Translations under genes and position numbers: made by a program
Shown here: one piece after another, positions 19,537 through 43,994 of the stretch
Numbering within the stretch: the first letter of the stretch is position 1
Layout of the letters: each line of letters begins with the position of its first letter
Assembly: GCA_040877375.1 (NCBI GenBank)
Contig: JBBDNW010000255.1
Span: 1-49,025, forward strand
DNA length: 49,025 nt
Origin: Pirellulales bacterium
Lineage (GTDB): Bacteria > Planctomycetota > Planctomycetia > Pirellulales > UBA1268
Direction: 5' to 3'
The notes under the pieces: generated by a model
The model's input: the letters and a program-made list of their open reading frames with translations, nothing else
Database searches by the model: none
Told to the model about the DNA's origin: nothing

Positions 19537-20034
19537 TCAGGTGGCCCTCGCGCGCGGCTTTTGGAGTTCGGCCTCGGCGGCCTCGGGCGTCATGTTCTTG
19601 AGCAAGTCGTCATTGGCCAGGATGCAGGGGGCGAAGTCGCACGCTCCCAGGCACTCGGCCGGCTCGATCGTCAGGCTCCCGTCGGCCGTGGTGCCGTAGG
19701 GCGGAATACCGTTCTTCTCACAGAGGTGCTCGAGCAGGTGGTCACCGCCGCGGAGGGCACACGACACGGAGCGGCAGACGAACGCCCGAACCGTGCCGTG
19801 CGGCTTGTCTTGGTAGAAGAACTCGTAGAAGGTCATCGTGTCTTGCACCTCCGCCGGCGCAAGGCCGAGCACCGCCGCGATCTCGGCCACGGCCTGGAGA
19901 GGCACGTGCCGCAGTTCGGCGTTGACGATGTGGAGCGCGGGCAGCGTGAGGGCGCGGCGGTTGGGATACCGCGGCGCGAGCGCCTCGATCTTCGCAACCA
20001 TCTCGTCGGTAAGGATTTTTTTCTGAGCGATCAT
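19537..20034 (-). CDS. nuoE: NADH-quinone oxidoreductase subunit E
   Basis: TFYEFF, CRSVSC, ECLGAC..APC. Start placed at ATG 20034. Confidence 0.93.
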   Translation of the reverse strand: MIAQKKILTDEMVAKIEALAPRYPNRRALTLPALHIVNAELRHVPLQAVAEIAAVLGLAPAEVQDTMTFYEFFYQDKPHGTVRAFVCRSVSCALRGGDHLLEHLCEKNGIPPYGTTADGSLTIEPAECLGACDFAPCILANDDLLKNMTPEAAEAELQKPRARAT

Positions 20035-20084
20035 GCGCGGAACGGATGGGTCAGTCGATCTTTTCTGTGCGGGTGAACCTGGGA

Positions 20085-20215
20085 GGGGTTGCCCCTGCCG
20101 TGGATCCGGCGTTGCTGGCCAGCAAAGCCATGGATGGCGAAGCGCAGCCAGCATCGAGTGAGCGGAGGCCAGGATGGCCGCAGTGAACGTCCGGAGCCAT
20201 GGCGGGGGCAACCCC
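20085..20215 (+). repeat. 131-nt structured dispersed element (MITE/REP-like or ncRNA), copy 1
   Basis: Terminal inverted arms GGGGTTGCCCCTGCCGTGG and CCATGGCGGGGGCAACCCC; internal GATGGCGAAGCGC and GAACGTCCGG shared with the copies at 33416 and 41267. Confidence 0.85.
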
Positions 20216-20247
20216 GACCCACGCAAAACGCTGCAAGCAGCCTTGTC

Positions 20248-21480
20248 TCATCGGTCGAGCTCCGCGGCGATGATGTTGAGGCTGCCGAGCACCGCCACGA
20301 CGTCAGAGAGCGTGTGGCCGCGGATGAGGTGGGGAAAGAGGGCAAAGTGGAGCACCGAAGGCGGCCGGCAGCGGGCCCGGTAGGCGTTCTCGCTGCCGTC
20401 ACCCACGATGTAAAAGCCGAGCTCGCCATTGGGGGCTTCGATCGCCGCGTACGACTCCTCGTGCGGCACCTCGAACCCCCGGTTGCTCATCGAGAGTTCG
20501 AAGTGCGAGATGGTGCCTTCGATCGTGGAGTAGACCTGCTGCTTGGTGGGCAGGGCCGTTCGCTGGTCGATGCCCACGTTGACGGGCCCCGCCGGCAGGT
20601 TTTCGATCGCCTGCGCCACGATTTTGAGGCTCTCCCGCATCTCCTGCATGCGGATCAGGTAGCGGGCGTAGCAGTCGCCGGCACTGGCGCAGCAGATCTG
20701 GAAGTCGAAGTCGCCGTAGGCGAGGTAGGGCTCGTCCTTGCGCAGGTCGCGGGTCACGCCGCTGGCCCGGGCGACCGGTCCGGTCGCGCCGCGGTTGATC
20801 GCCTCCTCCTTCGTCAGCACGCCCACGCCCTTCGTGCGGTCGACGAAGATGCGGTTACGGGTCAGGAGTCGCTCCATGTCATCGAGCGTTTTAGGGAACG
20901 TCTTGAGGAATCCACCGATCTTCTCGATCACCAGCGGGGTGAAGTCTTGCGAGACGCCGCCGACGCGGGTGTAGGAGTTGGTGAATCGTGCACCACACAG
21001 CGTCTCGAAGATGTCGTAGATCACTTCCCGCTGATAGAAGGCGTAGAGGAAGAACGTGAACGCCCCCGTGTCGAGGCCGACCGCGCCATTGCTGAGCAGG
21101 TGATCGCTGATGCGGGCCAGTTCGGCGATGATCGTGCGGATCGAGGCGCAGCGTGGCGTAAGTTCGATCCCGAGGAGCGCTTCGACCGCGTGATGCCAGG
21201 CCACGTTGTTGGCCATCGGCGAGATGTAGTTCATCCGGTCGGTGACCGTGACGTACTGGTTGAACGTGAGGTGCTCGCCGAGCTTCTCGAAGCCAGAGTG
21301 CAGATACCCCATTTCGGGCAGCGCATCGACGACCCGCTCGCCGTCGAGTTTGAGCACGATCCGCAGGGTGGTATGGGTCGCGGGATGCTGCGGTCCGAAG
21401 TTGAGCGTCCAGAGGTAGTCCTCGGAACGGGCGCCCGCCTCCGGGCCGGAGGTGCCGAACTCAGCCGTGGCGATGGACAT
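20248..21480 (-). CDS. nuoD: NADH-quinone oxidoreductase subunit D
   Basis: LNFGPQHPATH, GYLHSGFEK, EAPNGELG, C-terminal ELDR. Confidence 0.97.
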   Translation of the reverse strand: MSIATAEFGTSGPEAGARSEDYLWTLNFGPQHPATHTTLRIVLKLDGERVVDALPEMGYLHSGFEKLGEHLTFNQYVTVTDRMNYISPMANNVAWHHAVEALLGIELTPRCASIRTIIAELARISDHLLSNGAVGLDTGAFTFFLYAFYQREVIYDIFETLCGARFTNSYTRVGGVSQDFTPLVIEKIGGFLKTFPKTLDDMERLLTRNRIFVDRTKGVGVLTKEEAINRGATGPVARASGVTRDLRKDEPYLAYGDFDFQICCASAGDCYARYLIRMQEMRESLKIVAQAIENLPAGPVNVGIDQRTALPTKQQVYSTIEGTISHFELSMSNRGFEVPHEESYAAIEAPNGELGFYIVGDGSENAYRARCRPPSVLHFALFPHLIRGHTLSDVVAVLGSLNIIAAELDR

Positions 21481-33326: not shown

Positions 33327-33415
33327 GCGGGTGAGTGTAACGCGGCGTGCTGCTGCGCCAGCCAATCCCTTCGGGCCTTATACGGCTCACATTTGAGCCT
33401 CAGGCGTGGTGGTTC

Positions 33416-33547
33416 GGGGATGCCCCTGCCACATCTCCGGACGTTCGCGACGGCCTTCCGGGCCGGCGCTCTCTGCATGTCCGCTGCGCTTCGCCATCCC
33501 TGGCTTCGCTTGCTCCCACAGCCCGGCGACGTGGCAGGGGCACCCCC
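33416..33547 (-). repeat. 132-nt structured dispersed element, copy 2
   Basis: Arms GGGGATGCCCCTGCCACATC and GACGTGGCAGGGGCACCCCC; internal CCGGACGTTC and GCGCTTCGCCATC. Confidence 0.85.
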
Positions 33548-33681
33548 TCCTCGCATCATGGGGCCAGAACCGTTGAGGCCGCGCGAGACTCATTTGAGCG
33601 CTGTATGAGATCGCTTTCAACGTACGTGTCTTGCCGGCTTCGGGGGGACAAAAGTCGCCGCTGCGCGGTTTTGCGGATTGT

Positions 33682-33814
33682 CGCCGGGGCCATGGATGGC
33701 CCGGCAGCGGATGGTTTTCATCGGCCGCCGGGATGGCGGCCGGGAGGGCGCGGCGAACCTTGGCTTCGCCCCGCCCGACTCAAGCCCGCCGGGGCCATGG
33801 ATGGCCCGGCGGGC
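33682..33814. repeat. Cluster of GGAT-containing hairpins, including two identical 24-mers
   Basis: CGCCGGGGCCATGGATGGCCCGGC at 33682-33705 and 33787-33810; CGGCCGCCGGGATGGCGGCCG at 33722-33742. Confidence 0.75.
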
Positions 33815-33821
33815 GGTCAAT

Positions 33822-34166
33822 TTAAAACACGTCGAGATTGAAGTGGTGGCCGTGGTGGTAGCGACGCGACTTCGGGTATTCGTTATGCCAGGCGCGGTTG
33901 TAGACCGGCGTCCGCATTTCCTGCGGATAGCGGTGATAGAGGTCGTTGGCCGACTGCATGTAGCCGTCTTGGTAGAAGTTTTGTGGGTACCACACGTAGG
34001 GGTAGTGATAGAGCCGGTTCCAGTCCTGGGCGTTGTACGAGTTGCCCCACTGGTAGCCATAGGCCTGCGTGCCCGCGTTAGCGGGCGGTTGGGCGGCCGC
34101 GTCGGCGGCGGTGAAGCAGAGCAGCGCCAAGGTGAAAAGTCCCCCAGCGGCAAGGTGCCGTGTCAT
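33822..34166 (-). CDS. Small secreted Tyr/Trp/His-rich hypothetical protein
   Basis: Signal peptide ending A-A-A, GGGGGA RBS-like site, motif DWNRLYHYPYVWYPQNF. Confidence 0.8.
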   Translation of the reverse strand: MTRHLAAGGLFTLALLCFTAADAAAQPPANAGTQAYGYQWGNSYNAQDWNRLYHYPYVWYPQNFYQDGYMQSANDLYHRYPQEMRTPVYNRAWHNEYPKSRRYHHGHHFNLDVF

Positions 34167-40482: not shown

Positions 40483-40520
40483 GCAAAGAGGCCCTCAGCA
40501 AAACGGTGTGGGGAACGCGC

Positions 40521-41204
40521 ATGATCCAGGTCGAGTCGCTGACGAAACACCGCTGTGGCGTGCCGGTGCTCGACGGCGTGAGCATGGCAGGAGAGGAGGG
40601 GGGCGTGACGGCTCTGGTCGGGCCGTCCGGCAGCGGTAAGAGCACGCTGCTTCGCTGCCTCAATGGCCTAGATTGTTTCGAGGCGGGTGCGGTGTCGATC
40701 GCCGGCCACCGTCTCGCCCCCGGATCTAATCCCGGCGGTGTGCTGGAGGCGTTGCGACGGGACGTGGGAATGGTGTTTCAGCAGTTCAACCTCTTCCCGC
40801 ATCTTTCCGTGCTCGACAACGTCACGCTCGCCCCCCGCACTGTCCTCAAGACGCCCGCGGCGGAGGCCCGGTCGCGGGCCGTCGACCTGCTCGACCGCGT
40901 GGGGCTAAAGTCGTTTGCCATCGCTAGGCCTGCGACGCTCTCGGGAGGTCAGCAGCAGCGGGTGGCGATCGCGCGGGCTCTTGCCATGCAGCCGCGGGTG
41001 ATGCTCTTTGACGAACCGACCAGCGCACTCGATCCGAAGATGACCGCAGAGGTGCTCGACGTGATCGTGGACCTCGCGAAGGCGGGGCAGACGATGGTAG
41101 TGGTCACGCACGACCACGGCTTCGCGAAGCGGGCGGCCACGTGGGTCGTGGAGCTCGCCGCGGGGAAGGTCGCGCGTCAGGGCACGGCCGCCGAGATGCT
41201 GTAG
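40521..41204 (+). CDS. Polar amino-acid ABC transporter ATP-binding protein (GlnQ-like)
   Basis: GPSGSGKST, GMVFQQFNLFPH, LSGGQQQRVAIARAL, FDEPTSALDP. Confidence 0.93.
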   Translation: MIQVESLTKHRCGVPVLDGVSMAGEEGGVTALVGPSGSGKSTLLRCLNGLDCFEAGAVSIAGHRLAPGSNPGGVLEALRRDVGMVFQQFNLFPHLSVLDNVTLAPRTVLKTPAAEARSRAVDLLDRVGLKSFAIARPATLSGGQQQRVAIARALAMQPRVMLFDEPTSALDPKMTAEVLDVIVDLAKAGQTMVVVTHDHGFAKRAATWVVELAAGKVARQGTAAEML

Positions 41205-41266
41205 CGGGCGGGGGTTCAGGGCACGCGGTCGCCTCGCGACGGCGACGTATTGGCTTGGCGCGGGTC

Positions 41267-41398
41267 GGGGCTGCCCGTGCCCCGTCGCCGGACGTTCGTG
41301 TCGCCCCTCCTGAGCTCCACTCACTCGGATGCCGCCCGCGCTTCGCCATCGTGGCTGCGCTTGGCGTCATACGCCGGCTCCGGGGCACGGGCAGCCCC
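41267..41398 (-). repeat. 132-nt structured dispersed element, copy 3
   Basis: Perfect 18-bp arms GGGGCTGCCCGTGCCCCG and CGGGGCACGGGCAGCCCC; internal CCGGACGTTC and GCGCTTCGCCATC. Confidence 0.85.
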
Positions 41399-41443
41399 TC
41401 GCTGAGTTCGTGCCCGTGCAGACGTCGAGATGGACGGCGCAAT

Positions 41444-41480
41444 AAAAAAACTCCGCCCGGGGGTTTCCCCCCGGGCGGAG
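41444..41480 (-). terminator. Rho-independent terminator of the Cys-rich protein gene
   Basis: 13-bp stem CTCCGCCCGGGGG/CCCCCGGGCGGAG with a 4-nt loop, followed by T7 on the minus strand. Confidence 0.88.
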
Positions 41481-41533: not shown

Positions 41534-42334
41534 TCACTTAGAGGCAACCGTCCGGACCGCCTGCGCCTTCGAGGCGGAGGCATCGGGAGTCGGCTCGGCA
41601 GCCGGGGCACAGCCCGTGCCCGCACCGCACGCCGGCTCCGCACCGCAAGCCGGCTCGCAGCAGCCGTTGCCGGCCGAGCAGTCGGGCTCACCACCGCAGC
41701 AGCTGGTGCCGCAGCAGCTCTTGCGAGCGTGCTTGGCCTTCAGCGCCGCGAGCATCTCGCGGAGCGGGTGGTGCTTCTTCCGAACACCGCAGCAAGAGGC
41801 TGCACCGCAGCTGGGCTCGCAGCAGCCAGCACTGGCGTCGCAGGCCGGCTCGCAGCAGCCGTTTCCGGCGTCGCAAGCGGGCTCAGCGCAACCATTGCCA
41901 GCGTCGCACGCCGGTTCGCAGCAGCCGTTGCCAGCGTCGCAAGCGGGTTCAGTGCAGCTGCCGCAGCAGCTACGATCCCGCTTGCACTTGGCGAACAGAC
42001 CCTTCAGACCACCAAACAGATCATGCTTGCGTGCCTTCCGGGCACCGCAGCAGCCAGCACCGGCGTCGCAGGCCGGCTCGCAGCAGCCGTTTCCGGCGTC
42101 GCAAGCGGGCTCAGCGCAACCATTGCCAGCGTCGCACGCCGGTTCGCAGCAGCCATTACCAGCACCGGCATCGCAGCCGGGCTCGCAGCAGCCAGCACCG
42201 GCATCGCAGCCGGGCTCACAGCACGAAGCACAGCCCTTGTGGCCGAGCATCCTGTCAAGGAGCTCGAAACCGAAGGACTGGCTACAAACGGTAACGCCGA
42301 GAACCAGCGCACCGAGATACATCATACGCTTCAT
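41534..42334 (-). CDS. Secreted cysteine-rich tandem-repeat protein (CCEPACDAGNG)n
   Basis: AAGGAG RBS, ATG 42334, signal peptide MKRMMYLGALVLGVTVCSQSFG, 13 EP[AGSD]C motifs, own terminator. Confidence 0.85.
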   Translation of the reverse strand: MKRMMYLGALVLGVTVCSQSFGFELLDRMLGHKGCASCCEPGCDAGAGCCEPGCDAGAGNGCCEPACDAGNGCAEPACDAGNGCCEPACDAGAGCCGARKARKHDLFGGLKGLFAKCKRDRSCCGSCTEPACDAGNGCCEPACDAGNGCAEPACDAGNGCCEPACDASAGCCEPSCGAASCCGVRKKHHPLREMLAALKAKHARKSCCGTSCCGGEPDCSAGNGCCEPACGAEPACGAGTGCAPAAEPTPDASASKAQAVRTVASK

Positions 42335-42799
42335 CGAGCCACATCTCCTTTGCTTATGAATCACCGGTGTGCTCGTCCCGCTCGCGACGCTGTCACCCCG
42401 AGGTTGTGATTCACGAACTTTCCGCGGCAGGCCTGTCGAGCCATTCCGTGACTCGATTGATCGCAGGTTGTTGCCGCCCCCTGGTTGCCCGACGGGCACA
42501 GTGATGCCCCGGGGGACAAGTGGGCTATCGGCGGCCAGACCGAAGGGGCTTGAACCACACCCAAGTTTTTTGAACATCAACACTTGCGCGTGACTGTCAC
42601 GTTGAGAATGACGCGTGTGTCGGGTGCGCAAAGCCTGCGCTTTGAGGCCGCGCGATCGTCACGTCTTCACGTCACGGTCGTCGACAACCGGCAAGGTTTG
42701 CCACGGCGGAGGGCCGTGGTGGAAAACCCTGCGGCCCAGGCAGGGCTCAGTCGGTTTGGTTGACAGCCTCTGCCCGACCCTTACACTCTGCCCTTTGAC

Positions 42800-42994
42800 T
42801 CTGGTGGCCGGCCTCGCGGGCTCTTGCGCGGTTGGCAAACAGGGAACTCCGGTGTGATTCCGGGACGGCCCCGCCGCTGTATCCAAGCGTTTGAGGCTGG
42901 CTGTTATCAGGCCATTGCCGGCTTTCGTCCATCGGGGCGGTCCGGCGAGAAGGCATGCAGCCGGCTGAGCTTGGGAGTCAGAAGACCTACCAGA
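42800..42994 (+). ncRNA. Cobalamin (B12) riboswitch
   Basis: P1 TCTGGT/ACCAGA; AGGGAA-CTCCGGTGTGATTCCGG-GACGGCCCCGCCGCTGTA; GCCATTG...GAGAAGGC; B12 box GAGTCAGAAGACCTACC. Confidence 0.92.
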
Positions 42995-43163
42995 TGTCAT
43001 GGGTTCGCCGAACCGCGAGGGCGGGACGACGAGCACGGCCGCGAGGCCGTTCGTCTGCTCTTCGAGATCCGCTCCTGCACGCTTCGCTCCGCCGCGGTTG
43101 CGCTCTGCTTTTGCATGCGCAGTCGTCGGTGCTTTGCGATGTGTTGCTTTGCGCCTGCACTTT

Positions 43164-43994
43164 ATGGATACGTCGTCCGCATCGCTGGGAGGTTCGCGTG
43201 GCCGGCCGGCTATGACGCTCGTGGAACTGCTCGTCGTCATGGCAGTGATCGCTGCGTTGGTAGCCCTGCTCCTACCCGCGGTGCAGGCGGCCCGCGAGGC
43301 GGCCCGGCGGATCTCCTGCATGAACAACCTGCGGCATATTGGCTGCGCGATGCACGGCCACCTTCTAGCGCGGCGTGCGTTTCCCGTGGGGTGCACCGAG
43401 TGGCGGTCTCCGGGCAAGTCAGGTACCGAGCGGTGCCTGGCGTGGAGCGCACGGATTCTTCCCTGGCTCGAGCAGGAATCGGTCGCCGACATGATCGATT
43501 TCGCCAAGGCCTTCGATCATCCCGTCAACGCCACGGCGGCGGCCGTGCCGCTGGCGATCTTTCGCTGTATATCCGCGGACCGGCCTAACAACCTCGTGGC
43601 CAGCATGGGCCGCAGTGACTACGGCGGTGTGACCGGGGAGCGGATCGTCTCACCCAACAACCCCGAGAAGGGTGTGCTCGTCCATGACCGTGGCTTCGCG
43701 CCACGGGAGGTGGGTGACGGCCTGTCCCGCACGATTCTCGTCGGCGAATGCGCGGCGGGCAGTTGGTCGGACGGCCAGTGGATCAATGGGCGAAACCTGT
43801 TCGATCAGGCGTATGCCGTCAACTGGCCGACCTGGGAGGACGAGCTCCGCAGCCGCCATCCTGGTGGTGCCCATGCGATCTTCGGTGACGGTGCCGTCCG
43901 ACTCATCGCCGACCAGACCGACCCGCGCGTCGTCGCCGCCGCCTGTACAAGAGCCGGCGGGGAGTCGCTCCCGACAGCAGGAACGATTCCATGA
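43164..43994 (+). CDS. DUF1559 prepilin-like (type IV pilin N-terminus, H-X9-DG) protein
   Basis: A|MTLVELLVVMAVIAALVALLLPAVQAAREAARRISCMNNL, ILVGE, RHPGGAHAIFGDGAV. Confidence 0.92.
   Translation: MDTSSASLGGSRGRPAMTLVELLVVMAVIAALVALLLPAVQAAREAARRISCMNNLRHIGCAMHGHLLARRAFPVGCTEWRSPGKSGTERCLAWSARILPWLEQESVADMIDFAKAFDHPVNATAAAVPLAIFRCISADRPNNLVASMGRSDYGGVTGERIVSPNNPEKGVLVHDRGFAPREVGDGLSRTILVGECAAGSWSDGQWINGRNLFDQAYAVNWPTWEDELRSRHPGGAHAIFGDGAVRLIADQTDPRVVAAACTRAGGESLPTAGTIP

Follow-up and report, generated by a model that had tools for sequence, protein, structure and literature searches.

Dispersed through the intergenic regions of one planctomycete genome is a structured repeat of about 146 nt that has persisted across at least 11 genera of a single uncultured freshwater planctomycete family. 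It came to light in a 49,025-nt contig of a Pirellulales bacterium (JBBDNW010000255.1, assembly GCA_040877375.1; hereafter the window), which carries three copies. On balance, we think the repeat is a non-autonomous, structure-constrained element that resembles enterobacterial repetitive intergenic consensus (ERIC) sequences and REPINs, which are head-to-head doublets of repetitive extragenic palindromes (REPs), in its behavior, and in which the conserved entity is a single-stranded fold and not a pair of terminal repeats. Some trans-acting factor would then recognize the single-stranded fold and copy or maintain the repeat.

An original prediction, made from the letters of the window alone, had placed three copies of 131–132 nt there, and direct reading confirmed their positions and lengths (Table 1). 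Those GGGG...CCCC spans stand as described, but the conserved unit is somewhat longer, and the three copies proved to be members of a far larger family. The blocks CCGGACGTTC and GCGCTTCGCCATC do not vary among them, and mean column identity in their alignment is 84%. On both strands every copy is far more stable than its dinucleotide shuffles (z between -4.6 and -8.1; none of 200 shuffles equally stable). As predicted, alignment and folds of the three copies show terminal stems that differ in sequence and nonetheless keep their pairing.

The two strands of the repeat are not equivalent. On the strand that reads CCGGACGTTC, copies 1 and 2 each contain two A:C 1x1 mismatches, which are G:T pairs on the complementary strand. 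We call the latter strand rev: it is the purine-loop strand, it tolerates wobbles, and it reads GAACGTCCGG. In all three copies rev has the more stable fold, at -86.3 kcal/mol (z -8.1) versus -76.5 kcal/mol for copy 1, -85.1 versus -71.0 kcal/mol for copy 2 and -93.2 versus -84.6 kcal/mol for copy 3. The claim that G-T wobbles fall on one element strand therefore holds, but extending it to all stem imperfections slightly overstated the case, since each copy also has one non-wobble mismatch. The claimed relation to neighboring genes was correct: rev is antisense to both nuoD and nuoE, whose spacer holds copy 1, and sense to both neighbors of copy 2, an OPT-transporter gene and a small open reading frame (ORF), with gene identities taken from Pfam.

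The source genome, a 3.45-Mb draft assembly of 282 contigs that is 94% complete, contains many more copies. A profile of the three gave 60 nhmmer matches at E<=1e-3, 42 of them near full length (at least 120 of 153 model positions). We aligned 40 full copies from this genome (alignment A2), derived a consensus structure from per-copy folds, and built from these a covariance model, R1, which reports 55 matches at ~44 distinct loci, the remainder being opposite-strand echoes of the palindrome. Because at least six contig ends fall inside repeat copies, the true copy number must exceed ~44 loci. No Rfam 15 family reaches its gathering threshold on the repeat: the window returned a cobalamin riboswitch only, and five copy-bearing loci searched at E<=10 returned two chance-level matches, both outside the repeat.

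R1 describes a long terminal stem that opens into a three-way junction with two hairpins. The terminal stem, P1, spans ~20–25 bp, and its outer end on rev is GG-GA-GGGG/CCCC-GA-CC, which contains a tandem G-A mismatch; a second, short helix, P2, is closed on the same strand by CCGG/CCGG. Arm A consists of an outer 7-bp helix, a GAA-rich internal loop of GCGNAGC-type heptamers and a terminal hairpin GCCA-(U)GGA-UGGC. A conserved single-stranded GAGUGAG links it to arm B, the hairpin GGCC(A)-GGA-(U)GGCC, after which a conserved GCGAACGU returns into P2. Throughout, loops are the conserved part and stems the variable part. GGA occurs within the hairpin A segment in 39 of 40 own copies and within the hairpin B segment in 38 of 40; among 108 copies from other metagenome-assembled genomes (MAGs), hairpin B carries GGA in 83, and the others mostly have CGA.

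The stems covary well beyond chance. In A2, 87.6% of cells are paired against a shuffled mean of 76.0%, and 33 of 52 pairs show double changes; none of 500 shuffles reached the observed values. Sliding the 3' partners by 1–3 columns drops pairing to 30–47%. A further alignment (A3) of those 108 copies, from 100 loci of other MAGs, yields 94.8% paired cells against a shuffled mean of 82.8% and double changes in 34 of 48 pairs, again unmatched in 500 shuffles, although A3 was fitted to the model and so leans toward structure, and its loci were chosen by the two conserved blocks, which are invariant by ascertainment. Individual pairs illustrate the pattern in A2: the tip of hairpin A (pairs 52-55/60-63) is 96% paired, pair 97/106 in the hairpin B stem alternates between CG (24 copies) and GC (14), and P1 pair 12/141 varies among UA (17 copies), CG (14) and GU (5).

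Wobble counts across the family extend the strand asymmetry of the window copies. Over all pairs, rev has 78 G:T against 43 A:C in the 40 own copies and 171 against 37 in the 108 copies of other MAGs, where P1 alone contributes 105 against 22; as the copies are related, these counts are not independent events. Among P1 columns, 17 of 20 lean to G:T on rev, two lean the opposite way and one is tied. In 34 of 40 own copies, moreover, rev folds more stably than its complement. Together, the excess of G:T over A:C and the greater stability of rev indicate that pairing is constrained on one strand, and that strand is rev, with its purine-rich loops. With covariation exceeding all 500 shuffles, this bears out the predicted selection on a single-stranded fold.

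Copies are placed after genes, away from promoter regions, and have no orientation preference relative to transcription. We called gene neighbors with a home-made caller based on third-codon-position GC content, which gave sensible genes on the window. The 40 own copies with both neighbors called comprise 15 in convergent, 24 in tandem and one in divergent contexts, and 33 copies from other MAGs divide similarly (13, 19 and 1). In tandem contexts rev is sense in 16 and antisense in 8 own cases, and sense in 6 and antisense in 13 cases from other MAGs. The pooled count of 22 sense to 21 antisense agrees with the earlier claim that the fold is independent of host transcription. Own tandem copies lie closer to the stop of the upstream gene in 8 of 8 rev-antisense cases and in most of the 16 rev-sense cases.

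Such siting, frequent in convergent spacers and involving a long GC-rich hairpin on both strands, would also suit immobile hairpins that do not disperse and are retained to terminate transcription in both directions. However, the stem is not followed by a T-run, and a conserved three-way junction with conserved loops is unnecessary for termination. Moreover, sites differ between species in being occupied or empty, one copy sits inside the formerly overlapping nuoD/nuoE operon junction, and five copies form a subfamily with 89–94% identity. We give this explanation very little credence. In our preferred account, a copy that has settled probably doubles as a passive hairpin at the 3' ends of its flanking genes.

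Orientation does track base composition. The repeat shows a modest GC-skew orientation bias, roughly 2:1: rev occupies the C-rich strand for 32 of 45 own copies (flanks of ±15 kb without the element; Wilcoxon p 0.004), for 26 of 40 copies taken from separate contigs in six other genomes (p 0.05–0.08), and for 8 of 11 further copies within those stretches. The lean is still present 10–19 kb from the copy, and in the source genome GC skew does not correlate with gene strand (rho -0.04). Random orientation relative to transcription combined with the skew bias leads us to favor a reading of the repeat at the DNA level, and a replication-linked process would fit better than read-through RNA.

The fold could instead act as RNA. 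Here rev would be a cis-acting or sponge-like module whose loops bind a CsrA-type protein, or a stabilizer of 3' untranslated regions, with dispersal secondary; we consider this unlikely, if the most substantial of the rival accounts. As in functional RNAs, stems covary and loops are fixed, including the near-universal GGA of both hairpins, and copies lie in gene 3' regions. All 41 family genomes searched have csrA matches, 1–7 each and mostly 3–5; multiple csrA paralogues look high for genomes of 3–4 Mb. On rev, 37 of 40 own copies carry one or more instances of the motif CA(N)GGANG, drawn from the two hairpin loops, versus 2 of 40 on the other strand, and the motif matches both the CsrB repeats, CAGGA(U/A/C)G in hairpin loops, and the CsrA consensus RUACARGGAUGU from in vitro selection (SELEX) (PMC7652899). 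A second motif, the heptamer or octamer GCGN(N)AGC, has one or more instances on rev in 34 of 40 own copies versus 0 of 40 on the other strand; PMC13037366 gives GCGNAGC as the consensus of an unusually stable DNA "mini-hairpin" reported at priming sites of single-stranded DNA (ssDNA). The first motif hints at a role as RNA, the second at one as ssDNA. Since both follow from the conserved sequence, they are leads and not independent evidence.

Several observations speak against an RNA role. The GGA strand is sense in just 22 of 43 tandem cases, so half of the copies would be read as the UCC strand unless each had its own promoter, and no conserved flank exists that could hold one. CsrA is equally present in seven family genomes that lack the repeat, and the stand-alone terminator-like hairpins of these genomes carry a UCC loop in the sense strand. 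An RNA role would not lead one to expect the GC-skew bias, nor does any Rfam family match. More specifically, rev of each copy might be a CsrA-binding RNA module in which two CA(N)GGAUG loops on a rigid three-way junction offer a two-handed site for one CsrA dimer, so that 50 to more than 100 copies would act as a CsrB-like sponge or bring flanking operons under the control of the csrA paralogues; this elaboration strikes us as improbable. Of the features of the Csr/Rsm class, we found GGA hairpin loops, two per unit, and csrA genes in the same genomes.

The repeat is widespread within one family and old. R1 matches occur in 24 of 24 other species searched of the genus, with 12 to at least 78 scored matches per genome. 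Across the GTDB family, 33 of 40 other genomes and 11 of 12 genera have matches, some of which score 150–163 bits, level with the best own copies. In 16 other families of the same order, one genome each, R1 found none. An exact-pattern scan of one genome per species gave at least 119 stretches, with ~710 estimated; all those listed are MAGs, and their titles name Planctomycetota, Pirellulales, Planctomycetia, Planctomycetaceae or 'Ca. Kuenenia', with Chitinophagaceae as the one exception. Viral contigs scanned with the conserved pattern gave 0 matches. Mean identity among copies is 76% within the source genome versus 75.5% between genomes, and 11 of 40 own copies find their nearest relative in a small sample from other MAGs. 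Equal divergence within and between genomes, together with nearest relatives across genomes, implies an old family whose subfamilies are common to several species. The only clear sign of recent amplification is a composite subfamily of five own copies, including copy 2, that are 89–94% identical over ~225 nt and in which outer inverted repeats TACGGMTCACnnnnTGAGCC enclose the repeat core.

Whether an orthologous site carries a copy varies between species, which supports a non-autonomous element that is gained and lost. We found both flanks of the nuoD–nuoE junction in 24 species, the source included. The two genes overlap as ATGA (..GATCATCGG.. / ..GCGATCATCGGTCG..) in nine species, the spacer is nearly empty in two more, and two have an unrelated insert of 50–60 nt. 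The remaining 11 have spacers of ~190–430 nt; 11 of 11 match R1, versus 0 of the 13 others. In all, 11 of the 24 sites are empty or nearly so. Occupied spacers show both repeat orientations, some hold two copies, and all read GATCAT-insert-TCATCGG. The TCAT repeat bounding the insert may be a target duplication or may reflect selection that keeps the nuoD stop and nuoE start. In X3 and X4, two public DNA runs, contigs from relatives join position 20021 of the window directly to 20248; among the four DNA runs compared, one X1 contig spans copy 1 without differences.

A second locus, on own contig C208, tells the same story. It is occupied in the source genome and in G022 and precisely empty in G009 and G043; an R1 match is absent from 8 of 9 relatives' loci examined. 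The insert lies between CACCGGCG and GCAGCC, has GGCG on either side, and gives the upstream gene a new stop codon. Both resolved insertions thus have a 4-nt repeat (TCAT, GGCG), at variable distance from the core, and both include 20–45 nt of unshared flank on each side of the core. A search of the source genome for a donor found no paralogue of the copy 1 flanks outside the core. Flank-to-flank complementarity beyond the core is no greater in cis (mean score 11.8) than in trans (11.6), and exceeds the trans 95th percentile in 4 of 40 copies, two of them from the five-copy subfamily.

We found no enzyme linked to the repeat. The original prediction had proposed a REP/REPIN-like substrate of HUH transposases and looked to copies flanking a RAYT (REP-associated tyrosine transposase), an IS200-like or another transposase gene; this part found no support among the Y1, TnpB, IS110 or IS91-type Y2 genes. 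For a REPIN or REP doublet mobilized by a RAYT, a Y1 transposase, one can cite the long extragenic hairpin, the convergent and tandem spacers, the many copies, and the presence of Y1_Tnp genes (one to three copies each) in 18–20 of 41 genomes of the genus. But the source genome, 94% complete, has no Y1 transposase (PF01797), and the repeat is in every congener, a Y1 gene in about half. Four of 28 relatives' Y1 matches were examined and show no significant R1 match (best E 0.42); at the three loci scanned for repeats, inverted AT-rich palindromes of the AAAAGGTGTCAGGAACCTTTT type, unrelated to the element, flank the gene. Nor does the repeat carry a GTAG or CGTC-type tag of the form described in PMC3733652. 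A RAYT as mobilizer is largely refuted, and we regard it as the least probable of the accounts considered. In their own right, these three loci (L218, L219 and L220, in G045, G047 and G056) combine RAYT-like Y1_Tnp genes with AAAAGGTGTCAGGAACCTTTT-type palindromes in a classical RAYT-REP arrangement.

TnpB (PF07282) and IS110 (PF01548) are likewise absent from the source genome, although at 94% completeness the absence of PF01797 and PF07282 is not proof. IS91-type Y2 genes, by contrast, are present: PF04986 has 18 matches, 17 of them mostly partial. Contig C25 (L221; 750-3000 and 5298-6500) holds an IS91-family unit in which a phage-integrase gene split in two ORFs is followed by a Zn_Tnp_IS91/Y2_Tnp transposase, and a terminal segment of ~90 nt ending in GTTC recurs 4547 nt downstream. 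An HUH enzyme other than RAYT, such as an IS91-family Y2, might mobilize the repeat as ssDNA. Compatible with this are the strand-specific fold, the lack of target duplication, a conserved GTTC inside CCGGACGTTC, the full IS91-type gene with its neighboring integrase, the GC-skew orientation bias, and the GCGNAGC mini-hairpin motifs known at ssDNA priming sites (PMC13037366). Nevertheless, on 12 contigs with Y2 genes no copy adjoins the gene; all that turned up there was a weak partial match on C104 and, on C65, a full copy at a distance of ~8 kb. The C25 unit has ends that do not resemble the repeat. IS91-family insertion adjoins a GTTC or CTTG target, and the empty sites GCGATCAT|CGGTCG and CACCGGCG|GCAGCC contain neither. 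Finally, IS91-type Y2 was found in 20 of 33 repeat-positive family genomes and 2 of 7 repeat-negative ones, and the 13 positive genomes in which it was not found include some with 50 to at least 78 scored matches; such absences weigh little, since insertion sequences frequently go missing from MAGs. With Y2 genes neither adjacent to copies nor tightly co-distributed with them, we consider a Y2 mobilizer improbable. The genes bracketed by copy pairs, in four places, include no recombinase; they encode DUF6288/HEAT, peptidase M3, PSCyt/DUF1553, DUF1501, STAS, SpoIIE, halogenase-like, TPR and YTV proteins.

Our preferred account, a non-autonomous repeat defined by its single-stranded fold, must be weighed against several observations. 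No transposase is linked to the repeat, Y1 being absent here and, in relatives, associated with a different repeat. Terminal stems vary among copies instead of forming conserved transposase sites. An offset scan of 40 copies for a target duplication reached a best 4-mer agreement of 4 of 40, in line with the original statement that none was seen, and the TCAT found in both orientations may reflect selection for intact genes and not a mechanism. The 20–45-nt unique flanks are not predicted for a clean cut-and-paste or copy-and-paste unit. Bar one subfamily, there is little sign of recent bursts, given the near-equal identities within and between genomes. Finally, GC skew falls from +0.086 to -0.015 across dnaA in G057 and is positive on either side of dnaA in G068, the one nearly closed family genome (3.0-Mb contig); either dnaA lies away from the origin or skew behaves unusually in this family. 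Without a skew switch at dnaA in G068, neither skew sign can be tied to the leading strand.

Table 1. Positions of the repeat copies, their parts and associated features (window coordinates unless a contig is named)
Feature	Position	Strand or orientation	Basis or remark
Copy 1, GGGG...CCCC span	20085-20215 (131 nt)	reverse orientation	direct reading
Copy 2, GGGG...CCCC span	33416-33547 (132 nt)		direct reading
Copy 3, GGGG...CCCC span	41267-41398 (132 nt)		direct reading
Copy 1 core, ~146 nt	20078-20221	+ is the rev strand, reads GAACGTCCGG	covariance model R1, 151.8 bits
Copy 2 core	33410-33554	rev strand on -	R1, 114.8 bits
Copy 3 core	41261-41405	rev strand on -	R1, 123.9 bits
Copy 1 hairpin A tip, GCCA-TGGA-TGGC	20127-20138	+	stem covaries, GGA loop conserved
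Copy 1 GCGAAGC heptamer	20137-20143	+	fits the GCGNAGC mini-hairpin consensus; in arm A internal loop
Copy 1 hairpin B, GGCCA-GGA-TGGCC	20167-20179	+	stem covaries
Copy 1 near-invariant junction block GAACGTCCGG	20185-20194	+	CCGG closes helix P2; alignments A1, A2
Whole insert at the nuo junction, 213 nt	20035-20247	.	nuoE start CAT 20032-20034, nuoD stop TCA 20248-20250
TCAT, left 4-nt repeat bounding the nuo insert	20031-20034	.	occupied versus empty sites
TCAT, right 4-nt repeat bounding the nuo insert	20248-20251	.	occupied versus empty sites
Composite unit, 225 nt, around copy 2 core	33381-33605	.	outer inverted repeats TACGGMTCACnnnnTGAGCC
ABC-transporter ATPase gene	40506-41204	+	Pfam; copy 3 core lies 56 nt downstream
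csrA matches, own genome	C222, C280, C8:40695-40838, C27		

Other features lie near the copies or elsewhere in the genome. The cobalamin riboswitch of the window (RF00174, 80.1 bits) spans 42785-43008 on the + strand, upstream of a DUF1559 (SBP_bac_10) gene at 43212-43994. Thirty nucleotides beyond copy 3, a GC-rich hairpin at 41434-41480 with an A-run on the + strand reads as an intrinsic terminator on the - strand, which suggests a - strand gene ending near 41534. Near copy 2, identical GGGGCCATGGATGGCCCGGC hairpins occupy 33686-33705 and 33791-33810, downstream of the small ORF at 33822-34130, and a 36-nt repeat at 33649-33684 has at least 10 genome copies with 85–95% identity, several of them at contig ends. 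In relatives, the spacer that corresponds to the one with the GGGGCCATGGATGGCCCGGC hairpins is pieced together from other palindromic repeat families, which indicates that these genomes hold several unrelated hairpin repeats. On C43, C190 and C254, repeat copies are cut at differing internal points by another repeat, CAAGAAGCCCCAAGCGCGAGCGCGGGGAA, which suggests that one repeat family inserts into or replaces another. C58:1-250 is a tandem array of three ~97-nt units that join the left arm of the repeat to a module of unrelated sequence (CAATCCTGTTCGGCGCGCC...GGCAGGTGAATCGGCGTCTTGCG); the final portion of this module also stands just ahead of several full repeat copies.

How ERIC, BOX and CGTC-type REPs spread, and what purpose they have, is unexplained decades after their discovery. 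The repeat described here is an unusually clean case, with a compensated core, a strand asymmetry independent of transcription, a modest skew bias, and polymorphic sites that include nuoD/nuoE. This combination makes the recognizer of the fold, whether it reads DNA or RNA, directly testable. The repeat also has a practical cost, breaking assemblies of abundant freshwater planctomycete MAGs, as the contig ends inside copies attest here.

Among known repeat classes, REPs, BIMEs (bacterial interspersed mosaic elements) and REPINs share with this repeat the form of extragenic palindromes downstream of genes and the habit of forming mosaics with further repeat families within one spacer. The accepted model for REPs has them recognized in single-stranded form and on one specific strand. 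REP-like siting, extragenic and between convergent or same-direction genes, applies to 39 of 40 own copies and 32 of 33 from other MAGs. However, the unit here is 146 nt with a three-way junction and no linked RAYT, and the RAYT-like genes of relatives go with a different repeat. REPs, as PMC3733652 describes them, are 20–40 nt long with an unpaired GTAG or CGTC tag 5' of an 8-9-bp stem; CGTC does occur inside GAACGTCCGG, but not as a tag of that form. Searches of the literature on planctomycete REPs, miniature inverted-repeat transposable elements (MITEs) and REPINs found general surveys only and no description of this repeat.

Correia/NEMIS and RUP MITEs are similar in being dispersed non-coding stretches of 100–250 nt that form hairpins and are polymorphic among related genomes. 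A classical MITE is marked by terminal inverted repeats that are conserved and by a target duplication of fixed length. The repeat core has neither: no terminal inverted repeats conserved among copies were found, P1 varying with compensation, and only the 225-nt subfamily has outer inverted repeats. With attC sites and IS200/IS605 ends, the repeat shares conservation of fold over stem sequence, some conserved unpaired bases and one active strand. Yet attC sites form one-directional cassette arrays beside an integrase, and the ends of IS200/IS605 elements border Y1/TnpB genes and sit against a fixed tetranucleotide; neither arrangement is present. Looked at as a palindrome-associated (PATE) derivative of IS200/IS605, the repeat has no conserved flank that could supply the fixed tetra- or pentanucleotide expected at the left junction, and its genome, at 94% completeness, has neither PF01797 nor PF07282. 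The CsrB/RsmZ RNAs resemble it in CA(N)GGAUG in hairpin loops, two per unit here (PMC7652899), but are single small-RNA genes with their own promoter and terminator, whereas the repeat is dispersed in both orientations and has no Rfam Csr/Rsm match.

Failing the defining tests of REP-RAYT systems, of MITEs with terminal inverted repeats and target-site duplications, and of IS200/IS605 or IS91 derivatives, the element is best described as a structure-defined, orphan, non-autonomous repeat. Its closest counterparts in behavior are the ERIC sequences, or intergenic repeat units (IRUs), imperfect palindromes of ~127 nt from Enterobacteriaceae. The likeness covers size class, a single long imperfect hairpin, intergenic and usually transcribed 3' locations, either orientation, tens to hundreds of copies, cross-genus conservation, polymorphic sites and no known transposase. 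Taken as a functional class and not a sequence family, ERIC-like elements are intergenic palindromes of ~100–150 nt in either orientation, cross-genus, polymorphic and without a cognate transposase, and the repeat has each of these features. It differs from ERIC in its unrelated host phylum and probably in sequence. It differs, too, in having a three-way junction, two conserved GGA hairpins, compensating terminal stems and a measured wobble strand asymmetry.

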